Shown here: in pieces, positions 18,650 to 45,339 of the stretch
Layout of the letters: each line of letters begins with the position of its first letter
Numbering within the stretch: the first letter of the stretch is position 1
Assembly: GCA_964357975.1 (NCBI GenBank)
Contig: CAYHNG010000005.1
Location: forward strand, 1,031 to 65,030
Direction: 5' to 3'
DNA: 64,000 bases
From: an uncultured Pseudomonadales bacterium
GTDB taxonomy: Bacteria > Patescibacteriota > Microgenomatia > UBA1400 > MFAQ01
Notes under the pieces: model-generated
Told to the model about the DNA's origin: nothing
Seen by the model: only the letters and a program-made list of their open reading frames with translations
Database searches by the model: none
Program-made: the position numbers and the translations under genes

Positions 18650-19345
18650 ATGCCACAGAAAAATAGTCGTAAAGAATACGGAGCTGGTGGCTATTATCAT
18701 ATTTACAATCGTGGTGTTGAGAAACGAGATATTTTTCTAGACGAACAAGACTATAAAGTCTTTCTCGGATATATGAAGTTTTACCTAGAACCTCCCGACC
18801 TTCAAGGCCAGGCCTTGAAGGATCCAGAAGGCAAGGTTATTTCTCCTTCGAGAGAACCAAAGAACTATTCTTCTCAAATCGAGTTACTGTCTTATTGCTT
18901 GATGCCAAATCACTTTCATTTACTAATTAAACAATCTACCAATAGAGGCATAGCGGAATTTATGCAATCTTTGGTGCTTAAATACGTTTTGTACTTCAAC
19001 AAGAAATACAAAAGGGTTGGGGGTTTGTTTCAGGGAAGGTATAAAACTGTTTTGATTGAGACGGAGGAACAATTTGTTTACGTTTCAAAATATATTCATC
19101 GGAACCCGATCGATCTTTTAACTTCACCTTCAAGGCCTGGCCTTGAAGGTGTTGAAGGTATCTGTGAGTATAAATATTCGAGTTGTGGTAATTATGTAGG
19201 CTTGTTCAGTCAGAACTGGGTTAAGCCACAGGAAATAAGCTCTTACTTTAAGAAGATTAAGCGTAATTCTAGCTATAGATCTTTTGTTGAGGAAGCAAGT
19301 GGTTTAACAAAAGTGTACTTTGAGATGATAGATTTAGAACAATAA
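18650..19345 (+). CDS. IS200-like / REP-associated tyrosine (Y1 HUH) transposase
   Basis: Y1_Tnp hallmarks: YHIYNRG...IFLDEQDY, HUH motif MPNHFHLL, catalytic Tyr region RYK...YIHRNP. 231 aa. Confidence 0.8.
   Translation: MPQKNSRKEYGAGGYYHIYNRGVEKRDIFLDEQDYKVFLGYMKFYLEPPDLQGQALKDPEGKVISPSREPKNYSSQIELLSYCLMPNHFHLLIKQSTNRGIAEFMQSLVLKYVLYFNKKYKRVGGLFQGRYKTVLIETEEQFVYVSKYIHRNPIDLLTSPSRPGLEGVEGICEYKYSSCGNYVGLFSQNWVKPQEISSYFKKIKRNSSYRSFVEEASGLTKVYFEMIDLEQ
18799..18821. repeat. 23-bp perfect palindrome inside RAYT-1 CDS (encodes LQGQAL)
   Basis: CCTTCAAGGCCAGGCCTTGAAGG, in frame. Confidence 0.9.
19127..19149. repeat. 23-bp perfect palindrome inside RAYT-1 CDS (second internal copy)
   Basis: CCTTCAAGGCCTGGCCTTGAAGG, in frame (SRPGLEG). 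Confidence 0.9.
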
Positions 19346-19432
19346 TTTCTCTCTGCACGGTTTGCATTTCTTGAGATGGAGCCTGTCCTTCAAGGCCAGG
19401 CCTCGAAGGTGACTATATGAGAAGTGTCACCG

Positions 19433-20089
19433 TTATTGACGCATTAACGTGTTTAGGACGAAGAGGGCTTCAGTTTCATTTCGTGTGCAGTAGGATTTGC
19501 CACCGAGCGACTCAAAAAGTTCGCAGGTGGTTTGGCTGTCATCAATGATAGTGCTGTTTTCGATACTGGATCCTAAATTAGCAATTGTAGTGAGGAAGTA
19601 TTCCCCATTATTGTCTTTTTTTAAAGTTCCAATCTCGTACGAGCATTGAATCTCATCAAACGATTGGGTCAATACGGGATTGGCTGGGATGGTTAAACGC
19701 CGCAGTGAGTCCATGTTATCTGTTCTTAAAATGCAGTACCATTTTTTTCTAAGCGTTTGAACATTATTAAGAATTGGAAAGGAAATATCAATTTTTTGAC
19801 AATCTGTACAAAAGAGGTCAAATAGACTTTGATATGGGGCACCTGTTTTTGCGGCTATTAACTGGTGAATCTGCTCACTAGTATATTTGCCCCGCATCCA
19901 ATCATCCACCAACCCGGTAATCTTGGTTTCACCCACAAACAAAAAGTCTTCGATAGAATCGTAATAAGAATTGAGAGGATGAGTCTGGTTGCGAATACTG
20001 TCCCAAAAAGTATTATAAGAAATGACGCCGTTAAAATCGACGAAAAGGATCTTTTTGGGAAACGTTTGGTCTTTTTTTTCAACTTTCAT
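19433..20089 (-). CDS. HAD-like hydrolase fold protein (degenerate motif I)
   Basis: ILFVDFNGVIS (DxNxV in place of DxDxT), later IIDDS motif-IV-like. 218 aa. Tentative. Confidence 0.35.
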   Translation of the reverse strand: MKVEKKDQTFPKKILFVDFNGVISYNTFWDSIRNQTHPLNSYYDSIEDFLFVGETKITGLVDDWMRGKYTSEQIHQLIAAKTGAPYQSLFDLFCTDCQKIDISFPILNNVQTLRKKWYCILRTDNMDSLRRLTIPANPVLTQSFDEIQCSYEIGTLKKDNNGEYFLTTIANLGSSIENSTIIDDSQTTCELFESLGGKSYCTRNETEALFVLNTLMRQ

Positions 20090-20160
20090 GATGGTTGATT
20101 ATTGTTGTACTATTCAAACAGGTCCAGGTCAAGAAGGGAGAAATTTGCTATAGTTAAGAT

Positions 20161-21921
20161 ATGGATTATCAGGACAAGGCTTTGTTGGATTTTTTGATTT
20201 CATCCGGTAGATTGGATGCCGAGAAGGCGGAGGGTCTCAAGGTGGAAGCGTTGACCACAGGGAAAAAATTGTCCGAGTTACTGATGGAAAGAGGAATTAT
20301 CGGTGAGGAAGATTTGTCTCAAGCGAGAGCCAAGATTCTGAATATCCCCTATTTTTCGGAAAGCAAGATTTCAATTAGTCCGGAATTGTTGTCGCTTGTA
20401 TCGGTAGATTTGGCCAAGAGCTATGGAGTGATACCCTTTGAACTGGATAAGGAGGCCGGAGTGTTGAGTATGATTATGGTCAAGCCGGAGGAGCTGTCCA
20501 CGGTGGATTTCTTCCAAAAAAGAACCGGGTATAAGATCAAGTCTTTTTTAACCTCGAAGGCCAATTTTGATGTGTTGTTAACTAATGTCTACAGTCAAAG
20601 CTTGTCCGGAGAGATTTCCGGAGTTCTGAAACGGGGAAAAGAACAATCGGAAGAATCCGGAATTAGATTGGTGACGGCCGATACAATTTCGCAAATAATT
20701 AAGGAGCCAAAAATTGTTGAAATCGTCAGAAAAATATTAAAACACGCGATTCGGCTAAGAGCTTCCGATGTACATATCGAGCCGCAAGAAAATATCACCC
20801 GAGTGAGATACCGAATTGATGGTATTTTGGAAGAAAAGTTGACTTTGGATAAAGACTATCATGCCGCATTGGTTTCCCGTATCAAAATTCTGAGCGGCAT
20901 GAAAATTGATGAAAAAAGAATTCCTCAGGATGGACGTTTTAATTTTAGTTCGGAGTACGGTGAAGTGGACCTACGTATTTCCTCTCTTCCAACCGTAAAT
21001 GGAGAAAAAATCGTGATGCGACTTCTTAAGAAATCCGAGAAGGTTCCAACGTTATCGGAGCTGGGAATTAGGGCGAAAGCATTGGCCACGTTGGAAGAGG
21101 CCATTCACATTCCACACGGTATTATCTTGGCGACCGGTCCTACCGGATCCGGTAAAACCACTACTCTGTATTCTCTCCTGACAATGATCAATAGTCCGAA
21201 GGTAAACATTGTGACCTTGGAGGATCCGGTTGAGTACCAAATGAATGGTGTCAATCAGGTCCAGGTAAATCCACAAGCCGGTTTGACTTTTGCTTCCGGA
21301 CTGCGTTCATTTCTCCGTCAAGATCCCAATATCATCATGGTGGGTGAAATTCGTGATGAAGAAACGGCCCAACTGGCGATTCAGGCGTCACTCACGGGAC
21401 ATTTGGTGTTTTCCACGGTTCACACAAACTCTTCTTCCGGCGCACTGCCTCGTTTGTTAGATATGGGCGCCGAACCCTTTTTGCTGGCATCTTCGATGAC
21501 GGCGGCCATAGGGCAACGTGTTTTGAGAAAGATCTGTGATAACTGCAAACAGGCTTATGTACCGGAGCAGTCCGTGGTGGAGGACGTACAGCAAGTTTTG
21601 GGTAAAATGCTTGATGGTTGGCTCAAGTCCAGCTCCGACAAAACAACTCAGGTGAAGCAGAACAATGTACCCTTTATGCTTTATAAGGGGGCGGGTTGTG
21701 AAAAGTGCGGAGACTCGGGATATTTTGGGAGAATGGGAATTTATGAAGTGTTGAGAATTTCGGAAAAGATTGCCCGACTAATTTTGGAACGGGCTGATGC
21801 CGCAACAATTGAAAAGCAAGCTATGGAAGACGGTATGATAATTATGAAGCAAGACGGGTACCTGAAAGTTCTTGAAGGGATCACGACTCTTGAAGAAGTT
21901 ATTAGAGTGGCTCAAGTATAA
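20161..21921 (+). CDS. pilB: type IV pilus assembly ATPase PilB (GspE family)
   Basis: N-terminal T2SSE_N domain. Walker A ILATGPTGSGKTTTLYS. Asp box, His box. Tetracysteine CDNC...CEKCGDSG. Confidence 0.9.
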   Translation: MDYQDKALLDFLISSGRLDAEKAEGLKVEALTTGKKLSELLMERGIIGEEDLSQARAKILNIPYFSESKISISPELLSLVSVDLAKSYGVIPFELDKEAGVLSMIMVKPEELSTVDFFQKRTGYKIKSFLTSKANFDVLLTNVYSQSLSGEISGVLKRGKEQSEESGIRLVTADTISQIIKEPKIVEIVRKILKHAIRLRASDVHIEPQENITRVRYRIDGILEEKLTLDKDYHAALVSRIKILSGMKIDEKRIPQDGRFNFSSEYGEVDLRISSLPTVNGEKIVMRLLKKSEKVPTLSELGIRAKALATLEEAIHIPHGIILATGPTGSGKTTTLYSLLTMINSPKVNIVTLEDPVEYQMNGVNQVQVNPQAGLTFASGLRSFLRQDPNIIMVGEIRDEETAQLAIQASLTGHLVFSTVHTNSSSGALPRLLDMGAEPFLLASSMTAAIGQRVLRKICDNCKQAYVPEQSVVEDVQQVLGKMLDGWLKSSSDKTTQVKQNNVPFMLYKGAGCEKCGDSGYFGRMGIYEVLRISEKIARLILERADAATIEKQAMEDGMIIMKQDGYLKVLEGITTLEEVIRVAQV

Positions 21922-21936
21922 ATATATAACCACAAT

Positions 21937-23010
21937 ATGGATAAGGCGGCAGAATTAATGCAGAATATACTATTGGCAGGGTCGGAAATGGGATCGTCCG
22001 ATATACATTTAGTGGCGAACAGTAATCCAATATTTAGGACACTGGGTAGGCTAGAACCATATAAGCCTGCCGGAATAATTGACGCTGAACTTATAATGGC
22101 CATGATCGGCAGCGTTATGAACCAAAACCAAAAAGAGTTATTCCTAAAAGATTTTGATCTTGATTTTTCCATCCACGTTCCGGGAAAGGCTCGGTACAGA
22201 GCCAATGCTTATTTTCAAAAAGGAACGCCGGCGATTTCGTTGCGTTTTATTCCCGATAAAATTCCGACGATCAGCGAGCTTGGTTTACCTGAGATTTGCC
22301 ACTCTTTTGCCAAATTGAAACAAGGGTTTATTTTGGTTACCGGACCAACCGGTTCCGGGAAATCGACTACTTTGGCGGCGATTATCGATGAGATAAATAC
22401 CAATCGTGCCGATCACGTGGTGACAATAGAAGACCCAATTGAATTTGTTCACGAAAACAAAAAATCTTTCATCAGTCAGCGAGAGTTGGGTGGGGATACC
22501 AAAAGCTGGGGCAACGCCTTGAAGTCTGTTCTACGCGAAGACCCGAACGTGGTTTATATTGGGGAAATGCGAGATCCCGATACCATGCAGGCGGCAATGA
22601 CGGTAGCGGAGACGGGGCACTTGGTTTTTGCAACTTTGCATACCAATACTGCGGCACAATCAGTGGAAAGGATTGTAGATAGTTTTCCGGAGGAACAGCA
22701 GGCGCAGGTAGTGCTACAGCTTTCAATGGTTTTGGAGGCAGTCTTGTCCCAAAGGTTAATACCTACCATAGGTGGAAAGCGAGCAGTGGCGACCGAAATT
22801 ATGGTGGTGACACCCGCAATAAGAAATAATATTCGAGAAGGAAAAACTTTCCAGATCGATAACGTAATTCAAACCAGTGCAAATCTGGGCATGAAATTAA
22901 TGGAAAATAGTCTTGCCGATCTGGTAAATAAAAATGTGATTGACAAAACTTCGGCGCTGGAATTCGCGATTAGACCATCTTTATTAGATAAGATGTTGGG
23001 CGGAAGATAA
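21937..23010 (+). CDS. pilT: twitching-motility retraction ATPase PilT
   Basis: 357 aa. ILVTGPTGSGKSTTLAAIID. PilT-type C-terminus with no N-terminal extension. Confidence 0.88.
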   Translation: MDKAAELMQNILLAGSEMGSSDIHLVANSNPIFRTLGRLEPYKPAGIIDAELIMAMIGSVMNQNQKELFLKDFDLDFSIHVPGKARYRANAYFQKGTPAISLRFIPDKIPTISELGLPEICHSFAKLKQGFILVTGPTGSGKSTTLAAIIDEINTNRADHVVTIEDPIEFVHENKKSFISQRELGGDTKSWGNALKSVLREDPNVVYIGEMRDPDTMQAAMTVAETGHLVFATLHTNTAAQSVERIVDSFPEEQQAQVVLQLSMVLEAVLSQRLIPTIGGKRAVATEIMVVTPAIRNNIREGKTFQIDNVIQTSANLGMKLMENSLADLVNKNVIDKTSALEFAIRPSLLDKMLGGR

Positions 23011-23013
23011 TAA

Positions 23014-24216
23014 ATGAAAACTTTTCGTTATAAAGTGACGGACAGAGAGGGAAATGCGTCAAGCGGCGTACTGGAGGCAATTGAGGAAAAACAAGCGGCA
23101 AATATACTCCGGAGCAAAGGTCTCCTAATTACCTCTTTAAACGAGGCCGACCAATTTAATTTGGAACCCTTAATTGGACGGTTCTCCAAACCAAAGGCTG
23201 ATGAAATCACCAATTTTACTCGACAGATGGCAACGATGATTGGATCCGGTTTGCCACTAGTTGAAGCATTAAGAATATTAAAAAACCAATCCGGTTCCGG
23301 AATGAAACCGATAATTGAAAAGATCCTGTCGGAAGTTGAAGGAGGATCAACTTTATCCGATGCAGTGGAAAATTCCGGAGGAGGTTTTTCGGCGGTTTAC
23401 GTTTCGATGGTGCGGGCAGGAGAATCGGCGGGGGTTTTGGATCAGGTGATGGGAAAGTTGGCGGACGCACTGGACAAACAGCGAGAGTTCAGAAGCAAAA
23501 CCAAAGGGGCAATGGTGTATCCGGTAATTATTTTTATAGCAATGATCGTAATCGCTTCAATAATGATGGTGTTTGTGGTTCCTAAGCTGACGGCGATGTA
23601 TAAAGATTTTGGAGCAGAGTTACCCGGTCCAACCAAAGTGTTGATGGCGGTAAGTGACTTGGCAGTTAATTATTGGTTCGTAGTTCTGGGGGTGGTTATC
23701 GGATTCGTTTTGCTTTTTTCCAGTTGGTCAAAAACCGAAGTGGGGGGGCTGGTGGTGGAGCAGTTGACTTTCAAGATTCCTATTTGGGGTAAACTGAGAA
23801 AAGATATCATTTTAACCGAGTTTGCCCGCACCATTAGCGTGTTGTTGGGTGCCGGTATTCCCATTTTGGACGCATTAAATATTGTGGCCAACACGCTTGG
23901 AAGTCGAGTTTATTCGACAGGAATAAAACAGGCAGCCGTCTATGTGGAAAAGGGAGTGGGCTTGGCAGAGTCGGTGACGCGACTGGAGATGTTTCCTCCA
24001 ATATTATCGCAGATGATTTCCGTGGGCGAAGAAACGGGAAAGTTGGATACGGTGTTGGCCAAACTAGCCACCTTTTATGAATCGGAAAGTGAGATAAAGA
24101 TCAAAGCCTTAACCACAGCCATTGAGCCCTTAATAATGATTATCATGGGAATCGGAGTGGGGTTTTTGGTAATCGCGGTCATCATGCCTATCTACAACTT
24201 GACAAGTCAGTTTTAA
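23014..24216 (+). CDS. pilC: type IV pilus platform protein PilC (GspF family)
   Basis: Two T2SSF repeats, three TM helices. 400 aa. Immediately follows pilT. Confidence 0.9.
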   Translation: MKTFRYKVTDREGNASSGVLEAIEEKQAANILRSKGLLITSLNEADQFNLEPLIGRFSKPKADEITNFTRQMATMIGSGLPLVEALRILKNQSGSGMKPIIEKILSEVEGGSTLSDAVENSGGGFSAVYVSMVRAGESAGVLDQVMGKLADALDKQREFRSKTKGAMVYPVIIFIAMIVIASIMMVFVVPKLTAMYKDFGAELPGPTKVLMAVSDLAVNYWFVVLGVVIGFVLLFSSWSKTEVGGLVVEQLTFKIPIWGKLRKDIILTEFARTISVLLGAGIPILDALNIVANTLGSRVYSTGIKQAAVYVEKGVGLAESVTRLEMFPPILSQMISVGEETGKLDTVLAKLATFYESESEIKIKALTTAIEPLIMIIMGIGVGFLVIAVIMPIYNLTSQF

Positions 24217-24254
24217 TAATTCATAGTTAAGTAGTGGTTAACAGTTCAAGTAAT

Positions 24255-24818
24255 ATGAAAAATCAAGGTTTTACGCTAATGGAGTTGTTAATAGTCATTG
24301 GTGTGCTTGGTATTCTCGCCGCCGGACTACTAGCCGCGATCGATCCGTTTGAACAGCTCAAAAAAGCTCGAGACAGCAACTATCGTAGTGGAGCCATTGA
24401 ACTCTTGCAATCCTTACAGCGTTATTACGCCAATCATGGCTATTTCCCTTGGAGAGCAGCGGGTACTACTTGTGCGACCGACAATACCACGACACTCGCC
24501 CCAGCCGTTCCGGTTGCCTCTTTGGCGGCAGCGGTGGTTAAAGTTGGCACCAATCAAGATACCGAAATTAAATCTTGTGTCGATGACCTAATTGCAGATG
24601 GTGAACTAAAAGCTACTTTTAGTCAAGGATTAAACACAACGATTTATCTAAGTTCGTGGAGCAAGACAGATGTTCGTGTGTGTTTTGCACCGGAGAGTAA
24701 AAGTATTCGGAATGATGGTCAGACAAACTTACATTTGGAAGGGACCTCAGAACTGGTGACCGAAGGATGTACTTCCGACCAGAAGTTGGCTGGAGACTGC
24801 CTCCAGTGTTTCCAGTAA
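24255..24818 (+). CDS. type IV pilin (probable major pilin)
   Basis: Class III signal MKNQG|FTLMELLIVIGVLGILAA with conserved Glu at +5. Own terminator downstream. In-frame ATG at 24234 is the alternative start. Confidence 0.75.
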   Translation: MKNQGFTLMELLIVIGVLGILAAGLLAAIDPFEQLKKARDSNYRSGAIELLQSLQRYYANHGYFPWRAAGTTCATDNTTTLAPAVPVASLAAAVVKVGTNQDTEIKSCVDDLIADGELKATFSQGLNTTIYLSSWSKTDVRVCFAPESKSIRNDGQTNLHLEGTSELVTEGCTSDQKLAGDCLQCFQ

Positions 24819-24844
24819 AACGAAAAAATAGTTTTAGTAATAAA

Positions 24845-24866
24845 CTCCGCCCACCGGCGGGGTTTT
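24845..24866 (+). terminator. intrinsic terminator after the pilin gene
   Basis: Hairpin CTCCGCC-cacc-GGCGGGG followed by TTTT. Confidence 0.5.
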
Positions 24867-24882
24867 GGGTTAGAATCTACAT

Positions 24883-25698
24883 ATGATCTTGGTAATTCTT
24901 TTTTTGTTCGTCATGGGATTGGTTTGGGGGAGTTTTTTGAATGTAGTCATTTGGCGGATGTCTCATGGAAGCTCTCCCTTATCGGGAAGGTCAGTTTGTC
25001 CAAAATGTAAACACGTGATTTCTTGGTATATGAACATACCGGTTCTCTCCTTCATTTTTCTGGGAGGAAGATGTGCATTTTGTCATATGAAAATATCAAT
25101 CCGCTATCCGCTGATAGAGTTACTGACAGGAATCTTTTTTGTTTGGTGGTTTGTGGTTGGTTTTAATTTCTTTAAATTAGTAGGAAGTCCATGGAGTTTT
25201 ATTCAGCCGGTGTTTTGGCTGGTAACGGGTCTGGTTATGTTTACGATTTTGGTGACCGACCTGCTGTACATGGTGATTCCTTTTGCTTTGAATCTGACGC
25301 TATTTTCTTTGGCCCTGTCTTACCGTATTGGGCTGACCAGTTTTGGCATTATGGATAGTGCCGATTTGTTGCGATCAATTGGCGCAGGAGTGGGAATTTG
25401 TCTACTATTCATTTTGTTGCAGCTGGCTACTCGAAAAATTAAAAAGGTGGATGGTTTTGGATTAGGCGATATCTATCTGGTACCCTCGCTTGGTCTATTA
25501 CTTGGCTGGCCAAAAATATTACCCGGAATGTTCTCGGCCTTCGTTTTGGGGTCTGTGGTTGGGGTGGTACTGATGATGCTAAAGAAAAAGAAGATGAGCC
25601 AGTATCTCCCTTTTGGTCCGTTCCTAATTTTGGGAACGGCTATTGGTTTACTCTGGGGAGCCGTAATTTGGAGTTGGTATACTGGCCTTCTGTTCTAG
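24883..25698 (+). CDS. pilD: prepilin peptidase PilD (A24 family)
   Basis: N-terminal tetracysteine CPKC...CAFC zinc motif. Multi-TM region with catalytic Asp. 271 aa. Confidence 0.9.
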   Translation: MILVILFLFVMGLVWGSFLNVVIWRMSHGSSPLSGRSVCPKCKHVISWYMNIPVLSFIFLGGRCAFCHMKISIRYPLIELLTGIFFVWWFVVGFNFFKLVGSPWSFIQPVFWLVTGLVMFTILVTDLLYMVIPFALNLTLFSLALSYRIGLTSFGIMDSADLLRSIGAGVGICLLFILLQLATRKIKKVDGFGLGDIYLVPSLGLLLGWPKILPGMFSAFVLGSVVGVVLMMLKKKKMSQYLPFGPFLILGTAIGLLWGAVIWSWYTGLLF

Positions 25699-25706
25699 TC
25701 TACCTT

Positions 25707-32625: not shown

Positions 32626-32627
32626 AA

Positions 32628-36766: not shown

Positions 36767-36768
36767 AC

Positions 36769-37326
36769 ATGGTCAAGATAAATTTATTAGGTAAAAAGAG
36801 ACGAGAATCCAGCGCTAAGAATTGGATTTATCTTGGTATTTTGACTCCCTTTGTAGTTTTTGTTTTGTATTTCTTGTCTGTTTCGATCTTTGTGGTGGTG
36901 AAGCTGTCTTGGATAAAGGCCCAACAAGGTGTGGTTGACCGAGAAACAGAAACTGTTTCCCGAGAGATGGCGGCGAATAACGAGCTGTTAAAAAAATTTA
37001 TATTGGCGAAATTCATCTTGGGGAAAATCGAATCGTTAAATGCGGGGAAGTTTCCGTACAAAAGTTACCTGGATCAGTTATTAAGTTTTCTGCCGGAGGG
37101 TGTGGTGCTGAAAAACGTGGACTTTTCCAGTAAGGGCTGGATTTCTGTAGCCATTTCAATTGAAGGAATGAGACCCCTGCGAGCACTGGAACAAAATCTT
37201 TCCGGTACGGAAAAGCTCTCTTCCAGTGCCTTTCGCTCGGTATTTGTCGAAAGTGTTTCCAGGGATAAAATTGGTGTTTATAACGCAAAATTACAATTTG
37301 AAATAATGAGAAATGGCGGAAAGTAA
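36769..37326 (+). CDS. pilN: type IV pilus assembly protein PilN
   Basis: Begins MVKINLL(G)KK, then a single TM, then a periplasmic domain. 185 aa. Confidence 0.65.
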   Translation: MVKINLLGKKRRESSAKNWIYLGILTPFVVFVLYFLSVSIFVVVKLSWIKAQQGVVDRETETVSREMAANNELLKKFILAKFILGKIESLNAGKFPYKSYLDQLLSFLPEGVVLKNVDFSSKGWISVAISIEGMRPLRALEQNLSGTEKLSSSAFRSVFVESVSRDKIGVYNAKLQFEIMRNGGK

Positions 37327-38113
37327 GCTACTGGGATATAAAAAGGTTTTTGGTTTGGTACTGCCCGATTGGGTGAGTGAAAAGACGGTAAAAAACACAG
37401 TCTATGGCCTGTTGGTCATGGCAGCAATGCTACTGGTTTTGATATTTGTTGTTTGGCCGAAGTTGGCTCTTGTGGAGTCCAGGCAGGCTGGTTTGAATTC
37501 CAGTAAGACTGCTTTGGAAGCTCTGAAAAAGTCCAAAACGAGTATCGATAGATTAACGGCCGATTTATCCGAAACGGATCAGGCTAGGATATTGTCAGCC
37601 ATACCTCAAGAGTACTCTCCCGAAGGCGCTATTTATGATTTGCGGAAAATCAGTGCCGATACCGGTGTGTCCATTCTCTCTTACACTCTTCCATCGGGCG
37701 TTCTACTGGATACTGCCGGGTCTGTAGGCAAAACTAACGAAGGAGAGATGGTCGGCTTTGTAGCCTTTCCTGTTCGCATTACCGTGTCGGCTCAGGTGGA
37801 ATCTTTGTTGAGGTTTATCTCTATGGTAGAGTCATCGCTTCCTTTTGGAACCGTATCCGATTTAAATATCCAGGAAGTGACCAAGTTATCTCGAGCCACT
37901 TCCGACAAAACAGTGCAAATGGTTCTTGAGGTAAGGTTTTTTCAATCTGTTCTAAAGAAGGTGAATATCAGTAAGCTGCAGGCATTTACCGAGGATGACC
38001 TTAAGTTGGTTGCCGAACTCAGAAGCTATAATTTGTTGACGGTACCTGAGATTCAGCCTGGTCAGCAAATAGCAGCTCCGGTAGTGGGGTCGGGGAAGAT
38101 CTTTGGGTTTTGA
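37313..38113 (+). CDS. pilO: type IV pilus assembly protein PilO-like
   Basis: Single N-terminal TM, coiled coil, about 150-aa C-domain. Follows pilN with a 14-nt overlap. Confidence 0.55.
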   Translation: MAESKLLGYKKVFGLVLPDWVSEKTVKNTVYGLLVMAAMLLVLIFVVWPKLALVESRQAGLNSSKTALEALKKSKTSIDRLTADLSETDQARILSAIPQEYSPEGAIYDLRKISADTGVSILSYTLPSGVLLDTAGSVGKTNEGEMVGFVAFPVRITVSAQVESLLRFISMVESSLPFGTVSDLNIQEVTKLSRATSDKTVQMVLEVRFFQSVLKKVNISKLQAFTEDDLKLVAELRSYNLLTVPEIQPGQQIAAPVVGSGKIFGF

Positions 38114-38122
38114 TTTGACGAA

Positions 38123-38431
38123 TTATTCTTCTGTTTCGGTGGTAGCAGCCGGGATTTCTGAAAGGGATTCTTGGTTAACAGCAACTTTGGTTTCGTCTTC
38201 GAGAAGGTCCACGATGGCTCTGGTTCCCTTTTGGATGGCAGCAATTCTGACTAGTTGACGAATGGCTTTGATAACCTTGCCCTGTTTACCTATGACACGG
38301 CCGACATCCTCCGAATCGACTTTGATGAGGTACTTGGTGGTGTCTTTGTCCGTGGTGGCTTCCTCTGTGACGGAAACGTTTTCCGGGTGATTGACGATAT
38401 TGCTAACGATGTACTCAATGAGTTGTTTCAT
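38123..38431 (-). CDS. khpA: KH-domain RNA-binding protein KhpA (YlqC family)
   Basis: GRVIGKQGKVIKAIRQL KH motif (GXXG). 102 aa. Downstream of rpsP as in many genomes. Confidence 0.75.
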   Translation of the reverse strand: MKQLIEYIVSNIVNHPENVSVTEEATTDKDTTKYLIKVDSEDVGRVIGKQGKVIKAIRQLVRIAAIQKGTRAIVDLLEDETKVAVNQESLSEIPAATTETEE

Positions 38432-38664
38432 GTTAATTTAACCAATTTTCTAATGGTGTCTGTTGGTTGGGCACCCTTGTTGATCCAAGACTGATAGTCG
38501 GTCATGTTGACAGACATCTTGTCTTTATCTTCTTTTTCGTGTGGATTGTAAGTACCAATAGTATCCAGGACAGATCCGGATAATTTAGACTTGCCTTCGA
38601 CCACGACGATACGGTAGGAGCGTTGGTGTTTTTTGCCGGTAGGCTGTAGTTTGATTTTCAGCAT
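38428..38664 (-). CDS. rpsP: 30S ribosomal protein S16
   Basis: MLKIKLQPTGKKHQRSYRIVVVEG...TIGTYNP...GAQPTDT. Confidence 0.9.
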   Translation of the reverse strand: MLKIKLQPTGKKHQRSYRIVVVEGKSKLSGSVLDTIGTYNPHEKEDKDKMSVNMTDYQSWINKGAQPTDTIRKLVKLT

Positions 38665-38671
38665 AGGCGTA

Positions 38672-39370
38672 TTATATCAGCTCCAGGGCCTTTTGAGCAG
38701 CTTTTTGTTCAGCTTCCTGCTTGTTCCTCCCCGTGCCCGTAGCCAGCTCTTTGTTATTAACATAAACGGCAATTTCAAATGTTTTGTCATGGTCGAGGCC
38801 CGTCTCCCGGATGGTTTGGTAGAAAGGAGAGGCCTGACCAAGAGACTGGACTTTTTCTTGAAGAGTGGACTTGGGATCCTTAAGCCGGTCGAGAGCGATG
38901 ATGTCTTTGGCATTGGGGAGAATAAACTTTTCAAAAAAAATCTTGGTCGTGCCCAGTCCCCCATCGATATAGAGGGCGCCGATAAGACTTTCGATGACGT
39001 CTTCAAGAATTGACGAATTTTTCCGCCCACCGGTAGCTTCTTCGCCTTTACTCATGCGGATATAGTCATTAAAATGATTTTTGACGGAAACTTCCGAGAG
39101 AGATTCGGTTCTAACGGTTGCAGATCTGGCGGCCGTCAGATAGCCCTCCATTTTGTTCGGATATTTGTTATACAGATAGATTGAGATAAGCATTTCCAAA
39201 ATGGCGTCCCCTAAAAATTCGAGCCGTTCATAACTTTCGGTGATCCCGGGTTGGTTAAGACAGGAGCGATGGGTAAGGGCGGTTTCCAGGAGAGAAACAT
39301 TTTTGAATCGATACTCAAGGTAATCTTGGAGGTGGTCAAGGTTTTGGTTGGTCATCGGTAGTTTCGTCAC
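38672..39370 (-). CDS. rnc: ribonuclease III
   Basis: RNase III signature ERLEFLGDAILEMLIS. C-terminal dsRBD. 232 aa. Confidence 0.9.
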   Translation of the reverse strand: MTKLPMTNQNLDHLQDYLEYRFKNVSLLETALTHRSCLNQPGITESYERLEFLGDAILEMLISIYLYNKYPNKMEGYLTAARSATVRTESLSEVSVKNHFNDYIRMSKGEEATGGRKNSSILEDVIESLIGALYIDGGLGTTKIFFEKFILPNAKDIIALDRLKDPKSTLQEKVQSLGQASPFYQTIRETGLDHDKTFEIAVYVNNKELATGTGRNKQEAEQKAAQKALELI

Positions 39371-39725
39371 GTCCAGAATATCCTATGGCGGCCGCCAAAG
39401 CACCGTTGACGAAACTGGAACTAGTTTTACCTCCATAACGTTTGGCAATTTCAACAGCTTCGTCAATGATCACTTTGGTTGGAGTTTGATTCTTGAATAA
39501 GAGCTCATAGATGGCTTGGCGAAGCACAGCCAAATCCACGCGATTGATTTGGGAGATGGGCCACTCGGGGGCGCATTTTTGAATGATTTCGTCAATCTGG
39601 GCCAAGTGTGAATTGATTTTGTCTACTCTACTTGGGTGGTCCGGTTGTTCGGTGAAACTACCGGCAAAAAGGGATTTAAAAACAAGGATTCTCTTTAAAT
39701 GGCGTGGGTCTAGGGCAGATTTCAC
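39336..39725 (-). CDS. nusB: transcription antitermination factor NusB
   Basis: VDLAVLRQAIYEL...IDEAVEIAKRYGGKTSSSFVNGAL. Confidence 0.8.
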   Translation of the reverse strand: MKSALDPRHLKRILVFKSLFAGSFTEQPDHPSRVDKINSHLAQIDEIIQKCAPEWPISQINRVDLAVLRQAIYELLFKNQTPTKVIIDEAVEIAKRYGGKTSSSFVNGALAAAIGYSGRDETTDDQPKP

Positions 39726-39734
39726 GGTGTTGGT

Positions 39735-39887
39735 TTATTTTGATTTACAAACTGGACAGAGAAAGTGACCTCTCTTCAGGTTTCCACATTTTTTACAGAC
39801 TATAAGCTTTGGTTCAATAAGATGAATTTGAGATCTTCTCTTGCCTTGTCTGGCGGTGGAAATTTTTCTTTTTGGTGTAGCGGCCAT
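39735..39887 (-). CDS. rpmF: 50S ribosomal protein L32
   Basis: Manual translation gives MAATPKRKISTARQGKRRSQIHLIEPKLIVCKKCGNLKRGHFLCPVCKSK, with the CxxC...CxxC zinc ribbon typical of L32. Not in the ORF track (50 aa). Confidence 0.8.
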   Translation of the reverse strand: MAATPKRKISTARQGKRRSQIHLIEPKLIVCKKCGNLKRGHFLCPVCKSK

Positions 39888-39923
39888 TTTTGTTGGTTCG
39901 GATTTCTAATTTACTTATGTATT

Positions 39924-41903
39924 TTACCAAGTAACGAGTCTGCTGGCAATCTCCTCCGCTTTTTGCCTATTTTGGTGGATAATTTCCCTGGCATCGTGCT
40001 TGGCGAGTGTAAATAGTTTTTTTGACCAAAAATACTTGAGACGGGTTTGGAGTGAGCCATGTTGTTTTTCGCCATATATCTGCCCTGCTCCACGAAGCCG
40101 AAGATCTTTTTGAGCCAGGACTAACCCGGCGTGAAATTTTTGAAGTAACTGAAGCCGTTCAGTTTCCACCTCGTCGTCTCCGGAGGGCACCAGAAAACAG
40201 TATCCCTGTCCTTCTCCCCTACCCACTCGACCGCGAAGCTGGTGAAGTTGAGCCAGTCCAAATCTTTCTGCCGAATGAATGACCATGATGTTGGCGGCCG
40301 GAATATCGATTCCCACTTCAATCAGAGAAGTGGAGGTTAAGAGACTCCCCGGAGTGTTTTTGAACTGGAGGAGAATGCTCTGTTGGTCTTCGGGCGACAG
40401 CTTGCCATGAATGGTCCAGACAGGAAACCTTTCCGGGAGTAGACGCCGGTATTCCGCCGTTATCCGTTCAACAGAGGCCACATTTTGATGATGGTCCGAA
40501 ATATTAGGACAGACCACGAAGATTTGATTGCCTTTTTCCAGCTCCGAAATTAGCCATTTGGGACTGTCTTTGAATTTTGTAGGTGAAACAACGAAAGTCT
40601 TGACCGGTAAACGGTTGTTGGGTTTGTGGTGAAGATTGCTGATTTCGATATCCCCCAACAATCCTAAGGCAACTGTTCTCGGAATAGGAGTAGCGGAAAG
40701 ATTAAATAGATGAGGAAGAGGGCTTCTTTTCATAAGCATTTCTCTTTGGACAACACCGAACTTGTGTTGTTCGTCTATGGCTACAAAGGCAAGCGGTGGG
40801 TTTAAATCGGGTGGAAGCTGATTGAGCAACGCGTGAGTGCCAATAAAAAGCGTGGGTAAGGAAGAAATTTCTACCTTGTGAGTAGAAGTAACCAGTTTAA
40901 CTTGGTCCGGAAAGAGGGAGTATTTTTGGAAAGTGTGGAAGTGTTGAGTGGCTAGGATTTCAGTGGGTGCCATAAGAGCGCAACTGAAATTGGCCGATAA
41001 CGTCTGATTGGCGGCAAAGATTAGTGGTGCTGTCTTTCCGGAACCTGTTTCACCTTGAATGAGTCGATGAGTAAACTCGTGGTTCTTCAGATCTCTTTCG
41101 AGATGGTGAATAGTTTTTAGTTGATCGGAGGTTACGGTAAAAGGAAGAAGATCGGAGGTTTGTGTATCTACCTTGTGAGTGATTCTTATGGGAATCGAGG
41201 GACCGAGTTTGTCCAACTCCAGACGGTTGTTGATATTTATTCTGAGATGTTCATTGTAGGCCAGACGTTTATCGGCTGACCAGCGCTCACTACTTTCTGA
41301 GGGAAAATGAATTTGGATTAACGCTTTGGAGAGAGGAATAAGGCCACTTTTACTTAAGAGTTCCGTTTTCAAAGGATCCTGAAGATCAATATCTTGCAGA
41401 ATTTCGTAGATCTTTTTTCGAAGCCATCTGGAATTGAGACCTTCGGTTTGTGGGTAGAGAGGAACCAGCCCCTTAGTATTAAGGGTGAATGAGTCCCCTT
41501 CTTCAATAATCGGGGAGATAATGGTTAGTCCCTTACCAAAAAAACTAGGTCTGCCGGCGATACTATACGATGCGCCGTCTTTGATCAGTCTCTTTATATA
41601 TGGGTTGTTAAACCAAGTTAAGGTAATTCTTCCGGACGAATCTTGAGCGACTGATTGGGTAACCAGTTTACCCCCGGATGAGTAGAAAGTCTTGGGACTG
41701 TTGATTACCGCCAAAAAAGAACCGGGAATTTTTTCTTTGAGGTCTTTAATCTTATTTTGCTTGGAAAAATCAAGATAATTTCTGGGGAAATGTTTTAGTA
41801 AATCTCCTACTGTATATATCTCAAGGCGATTGAGCTTTTCTTCAATGGCGGGACCCACGCCCTTAACCGTGGAGATCGAGTCTCCGGTAGAGTATATACT
41901 CAT
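39924..41903 (-). CDS. recG: ATP-dependent DNA helicase RecG
   Basis: N-terminal wedge domain. Helicase motifs GETGSGKT and DEQHKFGV. 659 aa. Confidence 0.9.
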   Translation of the reverse strand: MSIYSTGDSISTVKGVGPAIEEKLNRLEIYTVGDLLKHFPRNYLDFSKQNKIKDLKEKIPGSFLAVINSPKTFYSSGGKLVTQSVAQDSSGRITLTWFNNPYIKRLIKDGASYSIAGRPSFFGKGLTIISPIIEEGDSFTLNTKGLVPLYPQTEGLNSRWLRKKIYEILQDIDLQDPLKTELLSKSGLIPLSKALIQIHFPSESSERWSADKRLAYNEHLRININNRLELDKLGPSIPIRITHKVDTQTSDLLPFTVTSDQLKTIHHLERDLKNHEFTHRLIQGETGSGKTAPLIFAANQTLSANFSCALMAPTEILATQHFHTFQKYSLFPDQVKLVTSTHKVEISSLPTLFIGTHALLNQLPPDLNPPLAFVAIDEQHKFGVVQREMLMKRSPLPHLFNLSATPIPRTVALGLLGDIEISNLHHKPNNRLPVKTFVVSPTKFKDSPKWLISELEKGNQIFVVCPNISDHHQNVASVERITAEYRRLLPERFPVWTIHGKLSPEDQQSILLQFKNTPGSLLTSTSLIEVGIDIPAANIMVIHSAERFGLAQLHQLRGRVGRGEGQGYCFLVPSGDDEVETERLQLLQKFHAGLVLAQKDLRLRGAGQIYGEKQHGSLQTRLKYFWSKKLFTLAKHDAREIIHQNRQKAEEIASRLVTW

Positions 41904-41995
41904 CGGATGAGAAGAGAGGCAAAGGTGGTGAGAACCAAAACCAGAGATCCGATGAAAATAATCGCGGTAAAAATTTTCCTTCTTCTTTTGGTCAT
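41900..41995 (-). CDS. putative 31-aa membrane peptide (stop overlaps recG start)
   Basis: MTKRRRKIFTAIIFIGSLVLVLTTFASLLIR. TGA overlaps the recG ATG (ATGA). A/T-rich promoter-like region upstream. Coding status unproven. Confidence 0.25.
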   Translation of the reverse strand: MTKRRRKIFTAIIFIGSLVLVLTTFASLLIR

Positions 41996-42031
41996 AGCTA
42001 TTTAATTATATATAATAATACAGAGAATAAT

Positions 42032-44593
42032 ATGTACAGAAGACAGCGTGCCAGACAAGTCGGAGTTATCTTACCGAGAATCATTTGGGGCAAGGTGATC
42101 TTTTTTGGGCTTCTGACCGTAACTGTTTTGGTTGCTTTGGTGTTTCTCTGGTTTGGACGTGACTTGCCTGACCCAACAAAAGTGCAGCGAAAAGCAGGCT
42201 TTTCTTCGGAAATATTAGATCGGACCGGTAAAGTGATCCTCTACGATGTTTATACCGATCAAGACCGCAAATTTACCCCCCTGGTTTTGGTTCCCGATTA
42301 CCTCAAAAAGGCAACAATTGCGATAGAAGATAAGGAATTCTATAAACATCAAGGATTCGATCCAATGTCGGTGTTACGGATCGCCAAAAATTTGATCATC
42401 AACAGACGTCTGATTGGTGGATCGACTCTGACTCAACAGTTGGTTAAAATGCTTCTGTTAACCAACGAACGGTCCGTATCGAGAAAAGTTAGAGAATTTA
42501 TGTTGGCCTTGAGAATCGAAAAGACTTTTAGCAAGGATGAAATACTGCAAATGTATCTGAATGAAGCTCCTTATGGTGGGAATGCCGTGGGGGTGGCAGC
42601 GGCTTCACAAATCTATTTTGGCAAAGAACCTAAAGACTTGAGTTTGGCCGAATGTGTGCTGTTGGCGGGACTACCCCAATCCCCTTCCCGTTATTCACCC
42701 TACAGCGGTAGTAACAAAAAGGCCTATCTTCCCCGAGCCAAAGAAGTTTCGAGAAGATTGAGAGAAGACGGGATTATTTCCAAAGAAATGGAGACCGAAG
42801 TAAATTCACAACTGGATATAATTCAGTTCAGAGGTTTGGGAAGTAATAAGATCAAAGCCCCACATTTCGTAATGTATGTGAAACAGCTCTTGGAAGATAA
42901 ATATGGATCAAGCATTTTGGATACCGGTGGGTTAAAGGTTACGACCAGTTTGAATTGGGATATTCAGCAAAAGGCGGAGGCTGCCGTCAAAGAAGAGGTA
43001 GATAAAGTTACCGGAAGTCTGAATATAAAGAATGGTGCTTCGGTGATATTGGATACTAATAACGGAGAAGTATTAAGTATGGTAGGTTCAAAAAACTTTT
43101 TTGACACTTCGATTGATGGTGAGGTAAACGTAACTACCAGATTGCGGCAACCGGGATCTTCGATTAAGCCACTTGTTTATGCCACTGCATTTATGAAAAA
43201 TTTTGGGCCGGCTTCAGTAATTGCCGATGTGGTAACGGAGTTTCCCGGAAAAGATGACAAAACTCCTTATGCACCAAAAAATTATGATGGTAAGGAACAT
43301 GGTTTGCTTCATTTAAGAGAGGCTTTAGCCAGTTCAATTAATGTACCGGCGGTAAAACTACTCGCTTTACTGGGCGTAGAAGATGTGCTTCGGCAGGGTT
43401 ACCGAATGGGTTTGCTTTCGCTTGAACCAACCAAAGAGACTATGGCCCGTGTGGGCCTTTCAATGGCTCTTGGAGGGGCTGAGGTGAGGTTGCTTGACTT
43501 GGTGGGTGCGTACAGTGCATTTTCCAACGGAGGTTTCAAGGTAGAACCGGTGGTTATCTTGAAAATCGAGGACGGCAACGGAGGGATTATTTTTGAGAAT
43601 AAGCCGGTAAAACCGGAAAAGGTCTTGGACGAGAAAGTGTCCTTTTTGATTAATTCCGTGTTATCCGACAACAATGCGCGATTACTGACCTTTGGACCCA
43701 ATTCATATCTTAATTTAGGAGCCAGAGCTGTGGCGGTGAAAACCGGAACCACCAATGACCTGAGAGATAACTGGACGGTTGGGTGGACGAAGGATTTTAT
43801 TGTCGGGGTTTGGGTGGGAAATAATGATAATGAAAAAATGAAAAACGTCGCTTCCGGTGTTTCGGGTGCGGCACCGATTTGGAGAAGAGAAACTCTGGAT
43901 ATGCTCTCTATCAAGCCAGACAGACCGTTTGAAGCACCCGAAGGAGTCTCTCAGATCGAAGTGGACAAGATTTCCGGATATCCGGCGCACGACGGGTACG
44001 GAAGTTATAAGGAATGGTTTATCAGTGGAAGCGTGCCGACTGGCCCCGATCCAATTCACACCAAAGTTAAACTGTGTAAGAATAACCCGACTAAATTAGC
44101 AGATCCGATCTCCATTTCTCAGGGTAATTTTGATGAGAAAGAATTTGTGATTATTAAAGAAAACGATCCGTTAACGGACAAGTCCAGTTGGCAGAAAGCG
44201 ATTGACGAGTGGATTGCAAAGCAAAATAATCCAATTTACTTGATTCCCACCGAAGTATGCGGCGCCAGTTCGTCGATGGATATTCAAATAGTAACACCGG
44301 CTAACAACGGAAGGGTCGATGGAGATGAAATCACTATTCGGTTTTCGGTAGTTTCCGATAAACCGATCGTGGAAGCCAGGATATTTATAGATGGAAATTT
44401 GGAACAGACCATTACGGATGGTGTATACCTCAAGAAAATGAAGATTGCTACAGGTCAGCATAGTCTAAGAATCGCGGCTCGAAACAATGAAGGTAAAGAG
44501 GAGTCTAAAACGAGTGATTTTGCGGTGAATGTAGACTATCTCTCCCCTACCCCTAGCCCAACTTTATCCCCCACTCCAACTTCAACTCCATAG
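42032..44593 (+). CDS. class A penicillin-binding protein (PBP1A; transglycosylase/transpeptidase)
   Basis: GT51 motifs (IAIEDKEFYKHQGFD, GGSTLTQQL). Transpeptidase SxxK (GSSIKP), SxN, KTG(T). C-terminal extension ending in a PT-rich tail. 853 aa. Confidence 0.9.
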   Translation: MYRRQRARQVGVILPRIIWGKVIFFGLLTVTVLVALVFLWFGRDLPDPTKVQRKAGFSSEILDRTGKVILYDVYTDQDRKFTPLVLVPDYLKKATIAIEDKEFYKHQGFDPMSVLRIAKNLIINRRLIGGSTLTQQLVKMLLLTNERSVSRKVREFMLALRIEKTFSKDEILQMYLNEAPYGGNAVGVAAASQIYFGKEPKDLSLAECVLLAGLPQSPSRYSPYSGSNKKAYLPRAKEVSRRLREDGIISKEMETEVNSQLDIIQFRGLGSNKIKAPHFVMYVKQLLEDKYGSSILDTGGLKVTTSLNWDIQQKAEAAVKEEVDKVTGSLNIKNGASVILDTNNGEVLSMVGSKNFFDTSIDGEVNVTTRLRQPGSSIKPLVYATAFMKNFGPASVIADVVTEFPGKDDKTPYAPKNYDGKEHGLLHLREALASSINVPAVKLLALLGVEDVLRQGYRMGLLSLEPTKETMARVGLSMALGGAEVRLLDLVGAYSAFSNGGFKVEPVVILKIEDGNGGIIFENKPVKPEKVLDEKVSFLINSVLSDNNARLLTFGPNSYLNLGARAVAVKTGTTNDLRDNWTVGWTKDFIVGVWVGNNDNEKMKNVASGVSGAAPIWRRETLDMLSIKPDRPFEAPEGVSQIEVDKISGYPAHDGYGSYKEWFISGSVPTGPDPIHTKVKLCKNNPTKLADPISISQGNFDEKEFVIIKENDPLTDKSSWQKAIDEWIAKQNNPIYLIPTEVCGASSSMDIQIVTPANNGRVDGDEITIRFSVVSDKPIVEARIFIDGNLEQTITDGVYLKKMKIATGQHSLRIAARNNEGKEESKTSDFAVNVDYLSPTPSPTLSPTPTSTP

Positions 44594-44658
44594 CTATACC
44601 TTGTTCTAGTCTGATATCCTGCAGGGCCTGGCCCTGCAGGTGATTATAATGGTAATAT

Positions 44659-45339
44659 ATGCCACAGAAGAATAGTCGTAAAGAATACGGTGCCGGTGGT
44701 CACTATCACGTTTATAACCGTGGGGTAAACAAGAGTTCGATATTTTTAGACGAACAGGATTTTAAGGTTTTTCTTGGGTACTTAAAACTGTATCTTGAAC
44801 CACCTAACCTGCAGGGCCAGGCCCTGCAGGATGAGAATGGAAGAACAATCCCTCCTTCAAAGGAACCTAAGAACTATATGGGTGAGATTGAGTTATTGGC
44901 ATATTGTCTAATGCCTAACCATTTTCATTTGCTCATTAAACAAAATACCGATAGAGGTATTGCTGAGTTTATGCAGTCTTTAATTCAGAGATATGTGATG
45001 TATTTTAATAAAAAATATATGAGAGTGGGAGGACTTTTCCAAAGTAGGTATAAATCGGTTTTAATTGAGGATGAAAACCAATTTGTGTATATCACTAAAT
45101 ATATCCATCGAAATCCGATCGATATTTTACCTGCAAAACTTGGCACTGCAGGATATGAAGTTTATCGATATTCTTCGTATGGGAATTATCTCGGTTTGTT
45201 TCAACAGCGATGGGTTCGGCCGGAGCAGATTCTTTCATATTTTTCCAATATGAAAGAAGGAAGTACTTATCAAAGCTTTGTAGAGAATACGGTGTCAGAC
45301 GATTTAACTAAAGTATATTACGAGATGATGGATAATTGA
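44659..45339 (+). CDS. IS200-like / REP-associated tyrosine (Y1 HUH) transposase, paralog 2
   Basis: MPQKNSRKEYGAGGHYHVYNRG..., HUH MPNHFHLL, RYK...YIHRNP. 226 aa. Roughly three-quarters identical to the 18650 paralog, by eye. Confidence 0.8.
   Translation: MPQKNSRKEYGAGGHYHVYNRGVNKSSIFLDEQDFKVFLGYLKLYLEPPNLQGQALQDENGRTIPPSKEPKNYMGEIELLAYCLMPNHFHLLIKQNTDRGIAEFMQSLIQRYVMYFNKKYMRVGGLFQSRYKSVLIEDENQFVYITKYIHRNPIDILPAKLGTAGYEVYRYSSYGNYLGLFQQRWVRPEQILSYFSNMKEGSTYQSFVENTVSDDLTKVYYEMMDN
44808..44830. repeat. 23-bp perfect palindrome inside RAYT-2 CDS (encodes LQGQAL)
   Basis: CCTGCAGGGCCAGGCCCTGCAGG, in frame. Confidence 0.9.
45130..45152. repeat. degenerate internal palindrome in RAYT-2 CDS
   Basis: CCTGCAaaacttggcacTGCAGG keeps the 6-bp outer arms at the position homologous to the second internal palindrome of paralog 1. 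Confidence 0.6.

Follow-up and report, generated by a model that had tools for sequence, protein, structure and literature searches.

In a stretch of 64,000 nucleotides (nt) of contig CAYHNG010000005.1, hereafter called the window, two paralogous genes for Y1/HUH transposases (gene 1 and gene 2) each harbor a short palindrome of their own, which recurs at fixed positions on both sides of the gene and inside its reading frame. With a probability of roughly 0.7, gene and palindromes form a REPtron-like unit, i.e., a single-strand-DNA transposase of the Y1/HUH type together with its cognate hairpin in up to four fixed slots. REPtrons, in which a tnpA(REP)/RAYT gene is flanked by cognate repetitive extragenic palindromes (REPs) and for which the co-evolution of enzyme and palindrome is established, are described in two reports (PMC3333891, PMC8266576), with short perfect palindromes in group 3 REPtrons. 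Two of the four slots studied here flank the gene; the other two belong to the reading frame and encode disordered surface loops of the protein that vary in length. The slots were designated U (upstream), I1 and I2 (first and second internal) and D (downstream). The genes and sites in the window are the following:

18650 to 19345, plus strand: gene 1, a RAYT-like Y1/HUH transposase of 231 residues with the HUH motif NHFHLLIK and the catalytic tyrosine in YIHRNP
18609 to 18631: gene 1, slot U palindrome CCTTCAAGGCCTGGCCTTGAAGG, centre T, ending 18 nt 5' of the ATG and just upstream of TATAAT
18799 to 18821: gene 1, slot I1 palindrome, centre A, coding for LQGQALK (residues 51 to 57) in a low-confidence loop
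19127 to 19149: gene 1, slot I2 palindrome, centre T, read in the other frame as PSRPGLEG (residues 160 to 167) in a loop with a predicted local distance difference test (pLDDT) score below 50
19387 to 19409: gene 1, slot D palindrome CCTCGAAGG, centre A, with one arm mismatch
44659 to 45339, plus strand: gene 2, the paralogous Y1/HUH transposase of 226 residues
44600 to 44617, plus strand: first copy of an 18-nt tail, cttgttctagtctgatat, directly 5' of gene 2 slot U
44618 to 44640: gene 2, slot U palindrome CCTGCAGGGCCTGGCCCTGCAGG, centre T
44808 to 44830: gene 2, slot I1 palindrome, centre A, coding for LQGQALQ
45130 to 45152: gene 2, slot I2, decayed copy CCTGCAAAACTTGGCACTGCAGG, 18 of 23 positions matching its cognate, arms of 6 bp, coding for PAKLGTAG
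45343 to 45360, plus strand: second copy of the 18-nt tail, cttgttctagtttgatat, 5' of gene 2 slot D
45361 to 45383: gene 2, slot D palindrome, centre A, with perfect arms reaching from 45358 to 45386

Gene 1 contains the 23-nt palindrome CCTTCAAGGCCWGGCCTTGAAGG at all four slots, and gene 2 the palindrome CCTGCAGGGCCWGGCCCTGCAGG at U, I1 and D besides the decayed copy at I2. These seven intact sites were the only matches to a degenerate 23-mer covering both variants (up to three mismatches) in the 64 kb, where none are expected by chance, and neither palindrome was found elsewhere in the window. The motif GGCCWGGCC occurs eight times against 0.21 expected occurrences. As single-stranded DNA, the intact copies gave folding energies of -10.8 to -15.4 kcal/mol (z -5 to -6.5); folding was weaker for the mismatched D copy of gene 1 (-6.1 kcal/mol) and the decayed I2 copy of gene 2 (-5.1 kcal/mol). 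At I2 of gene 1 the arms lengthen to 19125 to 19151. Every site that an earlier note on this DNA had described as flanking or lying inside the paralogs is present in the sequence; the internal copies fall within the interval from 18650 to 45339 given there, and flank copies lie just outside it. At slot I1 the codons read CTT CAA GGC CAG GCC TTG AAG in gene 1 and CTG CAG GGC CAG GCC CTG CAG in gene 2. The assertion that both arms had changed while the peptide remained the same is correct for the six residues LQGQAL common to both genes, but it does not extend to the seventh, as the partner of the silent change from CTT to CTG is a change from AAG to CAG that replaces Lys57 by Gln, which leaves one of the two compensated pairs non-synonymous. 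The third frame of the gene 1 palindrome has a TGA codon, and I1 and I2 use its only two open frames. Behind the I2 palindrome of gene 1 follows a near-duplicate of the right arm; the resulting tandem repeat (19143 to 19159, TTGAAGGTGTTGAAGGT) encodes LEGVEG and makes the loop longer by a few residues. A tandem duplication of the right arm was also seen in a close relative (L171, about 1360 to 1385), where slot D is followed by CCTTGAAGGTG twice. At 12360 to 12371 there is a lone GGCCTGGCCCTG, which in the palindrome of gene 2 corresponds to the centre together with a portion of the right arm, the left arm being absent; this half-match may be due to chance or may be a relic half-site.

Both proteins matched the Pfam family PF01797 (Y1_Tnp) with 44.0 and 43.1 bits (cut-off 23, E about 1e-11), and the motifs NHFHLLIK (H88, H90) and YIHRNP (Y148) were invariant among 36 homologs. 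An AlphaFold (AF2) model (pLDDT 77.5, predicted template modelling score 0.80) had as its closest solved structure 4er8 (E 8e-5), in which the Escherichia coli RAYT is complexed with a REP hairpin; other top matches in the PDB were 2a6o and 2xm3, and the TnpA proteins of IS608 and ISDra2 ranked after 4er8. The RAYT model NF047646 was the best and only NCBIfam match of both proteins, with scores of 39.9 and 45.1 bits that stay below its cut-off of 80 bits. A GTAG tag near the foot of the palindrome was found at only 11 of 237 flank sites across the family, so that the classical tag of REPs is absent. The proteins are RAYT-like: their earlier designation as RAYTs agrees with the fold and the cognate flanking palindromes, but it disagrees with the score of the curated model, with the missing GTAG tag and with the lack of high-copy REPs in the sequence examined.

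Genes 1 and 2 are 71% identical at the amino acid level, with a proportion of synonymous differences (pS) of 0.83, i.e., saturated, and a nonsynonymous divergence (dN) of 0.22. The gene preceding gene 1 is holB-like and that preceding gene 2 is a PBP1 gene; orthologs in other assemblies occupy the same positions, and both paralogs are syntenic in relatives at 76–92% nucleotide identity. Together with low ratios of dN to synonymous divergence (dS), these data identify both genes as stable residents under purifying selection, without recent transposition. The host genome is a tiny genome of Candidatus Collierbacteria. Between gene 2 and pheT, the window contains a gene for a HAD-family hydrolase (45413 to 46108) that is missing in two orthologous loci (L163 and L164), where pheT lies directly next to the transposase gene. 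The GC skew is positive in every 4-kb block of the window, which places it on a single replichore; both transposase genes point in the direction of replication, and hairpins of the sense strand would be exposed on the lagging-strand template. In both genes, 8 nt separate a TATAAT sequence (18636 to 18641 and 44645 to 44650) from the ATG, and a Shine-Dalgarno sequence is absent, which suggests leaderless or near-leaderless transcripts. Within the family, a strict TAnAAT 4 to 14 nt before the start codon was present in 22 of 152 genes and a Shine-Dalgarno-like motif in 13 of 152. At the palindromes there were neither intrinsic terminators, no T-tract following the stems, nor full sigma-70 promoters, just the -10-like TATAAT between U and the ATG.

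From the two paralogs by themselves, selection and copying could not be told apart. At E ≤1e-3, 7,933 database proteins among 8,000 candidates scored belonged to the family, and the named members come almost all from bacteria of the candidate phyla radiation (CPR, Patescibacteria). We examined 160 homologous loci plus targeted orthologs. Of 155 non-redundant genes, about half (77) contained a locus-specific palindrome of their own in one or both coding loops that matched the flank copies, and in 19 of the 155 all four slots were occupied. In addition, the longest exact match between zones was determined for the 82 genes with both flanks, using the same zones from different loci as null. At least 12 nt were common to the upstream and downstream zones in 80% of these genes (null 1.8%), to the upstream zone and the first internal loop in 27% (null 1.5%), to the upstream zone and the second internal loop in 35% (null 1.0%) and to the two internal loops in 13% (null 0.2%). 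For any flank compared with an internal slot, the values ranged from 21 to 35% (null 0.5–1.5%). As a control, rayT of E. coli was found to have a 37-nt REP on either side, and matches within the gene did not exceed the chance level. Slot occupancy tracks the protein clades: in the clade of the window genes, three or four slots are mostly occupied, in one large clade only the second internal slot is filled, in another only the first, and distant clades have the flanks only. The palindromes, 17–27 nt in length across the family, differ at nearly all loci, including paralogs on one contig, and have in common an inner AGG-N5-7-CCT core.

Outside the slots, 25 dispersed cognate copies were detected in 967 kb around 135 loci (about one per 39 kb), a figure referring to near-locus sequence. 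Ten of the 25 lie inside open frames of at least 120 residues in putative other genes. Copies in long frames were seen in L006 (+5489 relative to the gene start), L058 (+856), L022 (+6222) and L128 (-1649), where the frames comprise 923, 1498, 356 and 345 residues, respectively. Cognate hairpins may thus enter other coding sequences, as Rickettsia palindromic elements (RPEs) do. Short second tblastn hits in L024, L063, L078 and L026, tried as deletions at I2, are divergent full-length paralogs, and members of 171–172 residues in the 90% cluster of the window protein, considered as possible truncations, look like contig-end fragments beside the second internal palindrome. Four proteins in the 90% cluster of gene 1 (P0122, P0123, P0124 and P0126) are fragments that start or stop beside I2, one of them being listed for 21 contigs. 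The four-fold palindrome repeats seem to be points at which metagenome assemblies break. Many contigs with the gene (L004–L009, L011, L027, L070 and others) originate from metagenome-assembled genomes labelled Gammaproteobacteria, Pseudomonadales, Bathyarchaeia or Nanoarchaeia; these labels probably reflect errors of binning or labelling rather than the true hosts.

Several lines of evidence showed that the conserved entity is the palindrome at the DNA level and that the encoded peptide is a passenger. The internal slots sit in hypervariable, length-variable regions of the protein alignment and coincide with the two internal segments of the model with a pLDDT below 50 (residues 52–54 and 159–167). 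In the clade of the window genes, the second slot is read in one frame as PSRPGLEG, PAGPGPAG or PARSDLAG and in another as xYEDSPRR or AFRESPGR, and the difference between LQGQALK and LQGLALK at the first slot results from the centre base alone. The identity of the peptide stated in the earlier note holds for six residues only; throughout the family, the peptide changes with the palindrome, which may even be read in different frames. A fixed reading frame of each slot, which was also considered, is only partly true: of 46 sites at I1, the centre falls on the second codon position in 31, and I2 is mixed.

Orthologs revealed how slowly the stems change. In a trio of gene 1 orthologs with saturated synonymous sites (pS 0.68–0.83), the stems differed at 6 of 264 positions (2.3%) over all four slots, while the 15-nt flanks of the non-coding copies differed by 64%. 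In a trio of gene 2 orthologs (dS about 0.45) the corresponding values were 2 of 220 (0.9%) and 10.6%. Over the ortholog comparisons, pS ranged from 0.34 to 0.83 against stem differences of 0.9–2.3%. Homogenisation within a locus does not slow the divergence of lineages, from which it follows that purifying selection acts on the palindrome sequence or on one or more templating copies; the data thus indicate purifying constraint on the palindrome sequence. In the first coding slot (42 loci), changes on both sides were found at all nine stem pairs. The covariation score of this slot was 0.585 against 0.193 after shuffling, and pairing amounted to 88.6% against 30–57% in slid registers. The pairing percentages are partly circular because the family sites had been selected as palindromes also present in another slot; no such circularity affects the variety of pair types, the rates among orthologs or the test of zone sharing. 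The proposal that the hairpin itself is constrained was thereby borne out. The decayed I2 copy of gene 2 differs at 5–6 of 23 positions from the intact orthologous copies in L163 and L164, about the amount expected on release from constraint. As these orthologs have 89% nucleotide identity, the decay is a recent loss, as had been supposed. The I1 copy of L001 has likewise decayed (11 of 23 positions matching its cognate). Every slot was monomorphic among eight contigs, in three haplotype groups, that carry a close relative of gene 1. Restriction or methylation sites (CCWGG, GGCC, CCTGCAGG) were rejected as the cause of the palindromes, the centres at other loci being unrelated.

A palindrome change shows on both arms and in all slots of its locus. 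Copies of the same locus differed by a median of 1 of 21 nt (100 pairs were identical), compared with 11 of 21 nt between loci, and the internal copies were as near to the locus consensus as the flank copies. Of 264 stem mismatches, 114 were common, base for base, to another copy of the same locus (e.g., in L001, L002 and L084). In L083, the I2 copy is the exact reverse complement of the I1 copy, its stem asymmetry included. Comparison of asymmetric central 7-mers, those of coding copies included, yielded 68 identical pairs, 25 exact reverse complements and about 18 others. Between orthologs with 89–92% nucleotide identity, the centre base differed in 7 of 10 comparisons for gene 2 and in 3 of 4 slots for gene 1, the stems being unchanged. 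Shared imperfections and exact inversions of multi-base loops indicate that whole palindromes are copied or exchanged in either orientation, rather than restored by independent compensatory point mutations. The palindrome copies are consequently whole units able to sit in either orientation. Hence, the compensatory changes postulated from the two paralogs exist insofar as both arms change, but they arise as whole copied units and not as separate point mutations, and selection and copying both operate. The related proposal that each transposase diverges with its own hairpin was corroborated by the correlation of protein and hairpin distances (Spearman 0.41; Mantel test, 0/500) and by the paralogs with different palindromes on one contig. 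A fixed orientation of the slots, as the T-A-T-A order of centres in the window might imply, is not general, since loops vary between loci and flip between close orthologs.

A repeat unit longer than the palindrome was rejected because the flanks beyond it are mostly unshared between copies (9 of 24 nt). An exception is the 18-nt tail cttgttctagtYtgatat, which forms a direct repeat before the U and D palindromes in the lineage of gene 2 (L163, L164) and has no equivalent in gene 1. It is conserved in gene 2 orthologs whatever the centre base. As the centre flips without a turning of the tail in this lineage, the flip is local. The tail could be a guide or cleavage region; cleavage sites as such did not emerge from the flanks. 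In L162, a stretch of 25 nt (tcgtggagaatgatcaagtcataag) occurs just upstream of the U palindrome and again just downstream of the D palindrome. By its position, it is presumably the 3' end of the neighbouring holB-like gene, and it looks as if this gene end had been duplicated around the unit.

Deletions between copies were also discovered. Two shorter homologs, P0034 and P0108, have their start precisely at hairpin I1. In three assemblies (L167–L169), the orthologous gyrB-holB locus contains a single CCTTCAAGGCCTGGCCTTGAAGG that is bordered on the left by the 3' end of holB and on the right by the codons that follow I1. This corresponds to a precise deletion of 190 bp between U and I1, by which the promoter region and the first 50 codons were lost. 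The same architecture of the U-I1 junction was present in another lineage (L170). Since two of the deletion contigs stem from assemblies with k=127 and k=141, a mis-join at a 23-nt repeat is unlikely. These data show that the hairpin copies recombine with each other in nature, and the U-I1 deletions show that the internal copies carry a cost.

According to our model, the encoded enzyme would bind the hairpins on single-stranded DNA and would probably cut and rejoin them. Neighbouring copies would undergo exchange, through the enzyme or through template switching of replication between close palindromes, and this would homogenise the slots and flip the centres, while selection for recognition by the cognate enzyme would hold the palindrome sequence fixed. 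The internal copies might serve as extra substrates tying the enzyme to its own gene, and their role would most plausibly be self-limiting or autoregulatory. It is also conceivable, though we deem it unlikely, that the Y1 enzyme itself moves the hairpin of 17–27 nt as a unit between existing hairpin sites on either strand. If this hairpin replacement took place, all cognate slots would be rewritten, homogenised and flipped, including the two in the reading frame of the enzyme. The transposase would then routinely edit its own coding sequence (a toggle between Gln and Leu at I1) and, on occasion, delete the 5' part of its gene. Such an activity would be undescribed so far for the RAYT type and would be a candidate answer to the question how REPs are copied.

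Some points weigh against the interpretation as a REPtron-like unit. Binding and cutting of the hairpins by the enzyme are presumed from its homology to IS608, ISDra2 and TnpA(REP) of E. coli. RecA-independent slippage or template switching between 23-bp repeats that are 190–700 bp apart would also give exchange. The counts of dispersed copies refer to the window and to near-locus sequence, and the pairing percentages bear the circularity mentioned above. Moreover, the internal slots are individually dispensable, as whole clades lack one and both gene 2 and L001 have one decayed, and selection on the flank copies combined with conversion would give the same pattern as direct selection on the internal copies.

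The latter points lead to an explanation that we regard as quite possible, albeit not as the probable one, namely that the internal palindromes are passive hitchhikers. They would be neutral in-frame insertions of a mobile REP-like element in permissive loops; only the flanks would be selected, and the internal copies would be overwritten from them and decay once overwriting stops. The loss of internal slots clade by clade fits this explanation, as do the fossils at I2 of gene 2 and I1 of L001 with 18 and 11 of 23 matching positions, the disordered and variable loops and the frames that differ between subclades. The 10 of 25 dispersed copies in open frames of other genes suggest that hairpins can enter coding sequence, and whole-unit flips and shared imperfections point to copying. 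Yet the U-I1 deletions destroy the gene, which is a visible cost, and the slots nevertheless persist while synonymous sites saturate. The internal copies are also as well kept as the flank copies, and states of intermediate decay are few, the share of loci with at least 10 nt in common being almost the same as that with at least 12 nt.

A dimeric protein, Y1 or a partner, might bind the palindromes on duplex DNA and repress the gene, so that the symmetry of a double-stranded operator and not hairpin folding would lie behind the matched arm changes. The U copy indeed abuts TATAAT, there are several sites per gene, and perfect two-fold symmetry with a freely flipping centre base would be tolerable for a duplex site. 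On the other hand, all relatives of solved structure bind hairpins folded from single strands, asymmetric loops and mismatches in the stems are preserved from copy to copy, and the downstream site and the two in-frame sites have no obvious regulatory logic; we judge an operator to be unlikely. Selection of the stems in the transcript, for translation pausing, RNase III processing or mRNA stability, is very unlikely in our opinion. The stems are strong, the transcripts include or probably include the internal and downstream copies, and IS200, which limits the expression of its transposase by RNA hairpins, provides a precedent. However, the mRNA version of hairpin selection put forward in the earlier note would entail a preferential tolerance of G-U pairs on the sense strand, and none was found: G.T and A.C arm mismatches numbered 14 and 30 in the internal copies and 48 and 46 in the flanks. 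Furthermore, the same palindrome occurs upstream of the -10-like box, where it is probably untranscribed, the copies agree in exact sequence and in stem mismatches beyond pairing, the loops flip to the reverse complement, by which an RNA loop would be altered, and the lack of a T-tract after the stems argues against intrinsic terminators. Finally, the units might be active insertion sequences of the IS200 type, with the palindromes as left-end and right-end hairpins and the internal ones as relics of nested insertions. The hairpins adjoining both gene ends, the unit size of about 770–800 bp, which is that of IS200, and the affiliation of the family with Pfam Y1_Tnp would agree with this. Saturated synonymous divergence of the two window copies (pS 0.83), the syntenic position of each gene in relatives and the lack of identical extra copies make it highly improbable, however, and internal slots that are homologous in position across deep clades and match the current flanks are not old relics.

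The REPtron-like unit shares with known REPtrons a Y1/HUH gene flanked on both sides by its own palindrome, mutual specificity and co-evolution, the status of a vertically inherited resident and the fold of 4er8. Unlike those, of which E. coli rayT has no such sites, the window family adds two conserved slots in the reading frame, lacks the GTAG tag and has very few dispersed copies (none in the 64 kb). The window protein has about 70 residues more and a score below the cut-off of the curated RAYT model, and several divergent paralogs are possible in one genome of this family. With the IS200/IS605 elements (IS200, IS608, ISDra2) it has in common the catalytic fold and motifs, the hairpins next to both gene ends and an IS200-like unit size. 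In contrast to them, the window units show no sign of recent transposition, contain additional in-frame copies and possess near-perfect palindromes that are identical at both ends, which would not correspond to distinct left and right ends. In the REPIN-RAYT systems of Bertels and Rainey, each RAYT is tied to its own palindrome family (PMC3116915, PMC5581495). The family studied here resembles these systems in having one palindrome family per enzyme, in vertical inheritance and in long persistence; it differs in that the sequence examined contained neither REP doublets nor large REPIN populations, most copies being in or next to the gene.

In-frame palindromic repeats have precedents as well. 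Reported cases are REPs that lie within other genes or overlap RAYT gene ends (PMC3733652) and in-frame RPEs (PMC10969869); there, as here, the repeat is tolerated in frame and its peptide is accommodated by the fold. However, those repeats are scattered in unrelated genes, RPEs having a size of about 150 bp, whereas the present ones are 17–27 nt long, reside in the gene of their presumed own enzyme, occupy conserved slots and are identical to the flank copies. Mitochondrial genes of Nematomorpha contain coding palindromes too (PMC6649704), which are perfect inverted repeats in coding sequence with arms changing together. They belong to an organelle, are much longer and have neither an associated enzyme nor matching non-coding copies. 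Full-text searches and keyword look-ups in papers on RAYTs, REPs and intragenic repeats yielded no description of cognate palindromes at conserved slots inside a RAYT reading frame. On this basis, a REPtron variant with in-frame cognate palindromes that evolve in concert with the flank copies would be new.

Knowledge of REP-associated transposases and their palindromes goes back more than ten years. The present loci bear on two questions, the copying of REPs and the role of the enzyme in the cell. They constitute a compact natural system, in which most of the palindrome copies seen adjoin or lie within the enzyme's own gene and in which two copies are part of the coding sequence, so that the protein, too, keeps a record of palindrome changes. 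These loci combine purifying constraint with concerted change, flips of orientation and deletions between copies. With two natural pairs of enzyme and substrate whose palindromes differ by only two base pairs, the co-evolution of both is directly testable, and the exchange of hairpins between sites by a Y1 enzyme becomes a testable question. For practical purposes, it should be considered that metagenome assemblies tend to break at the palindrome repeats. Conserved peptide motifs of this family such as LQGQALK and PAGPGPAG are a translated DNA signal.

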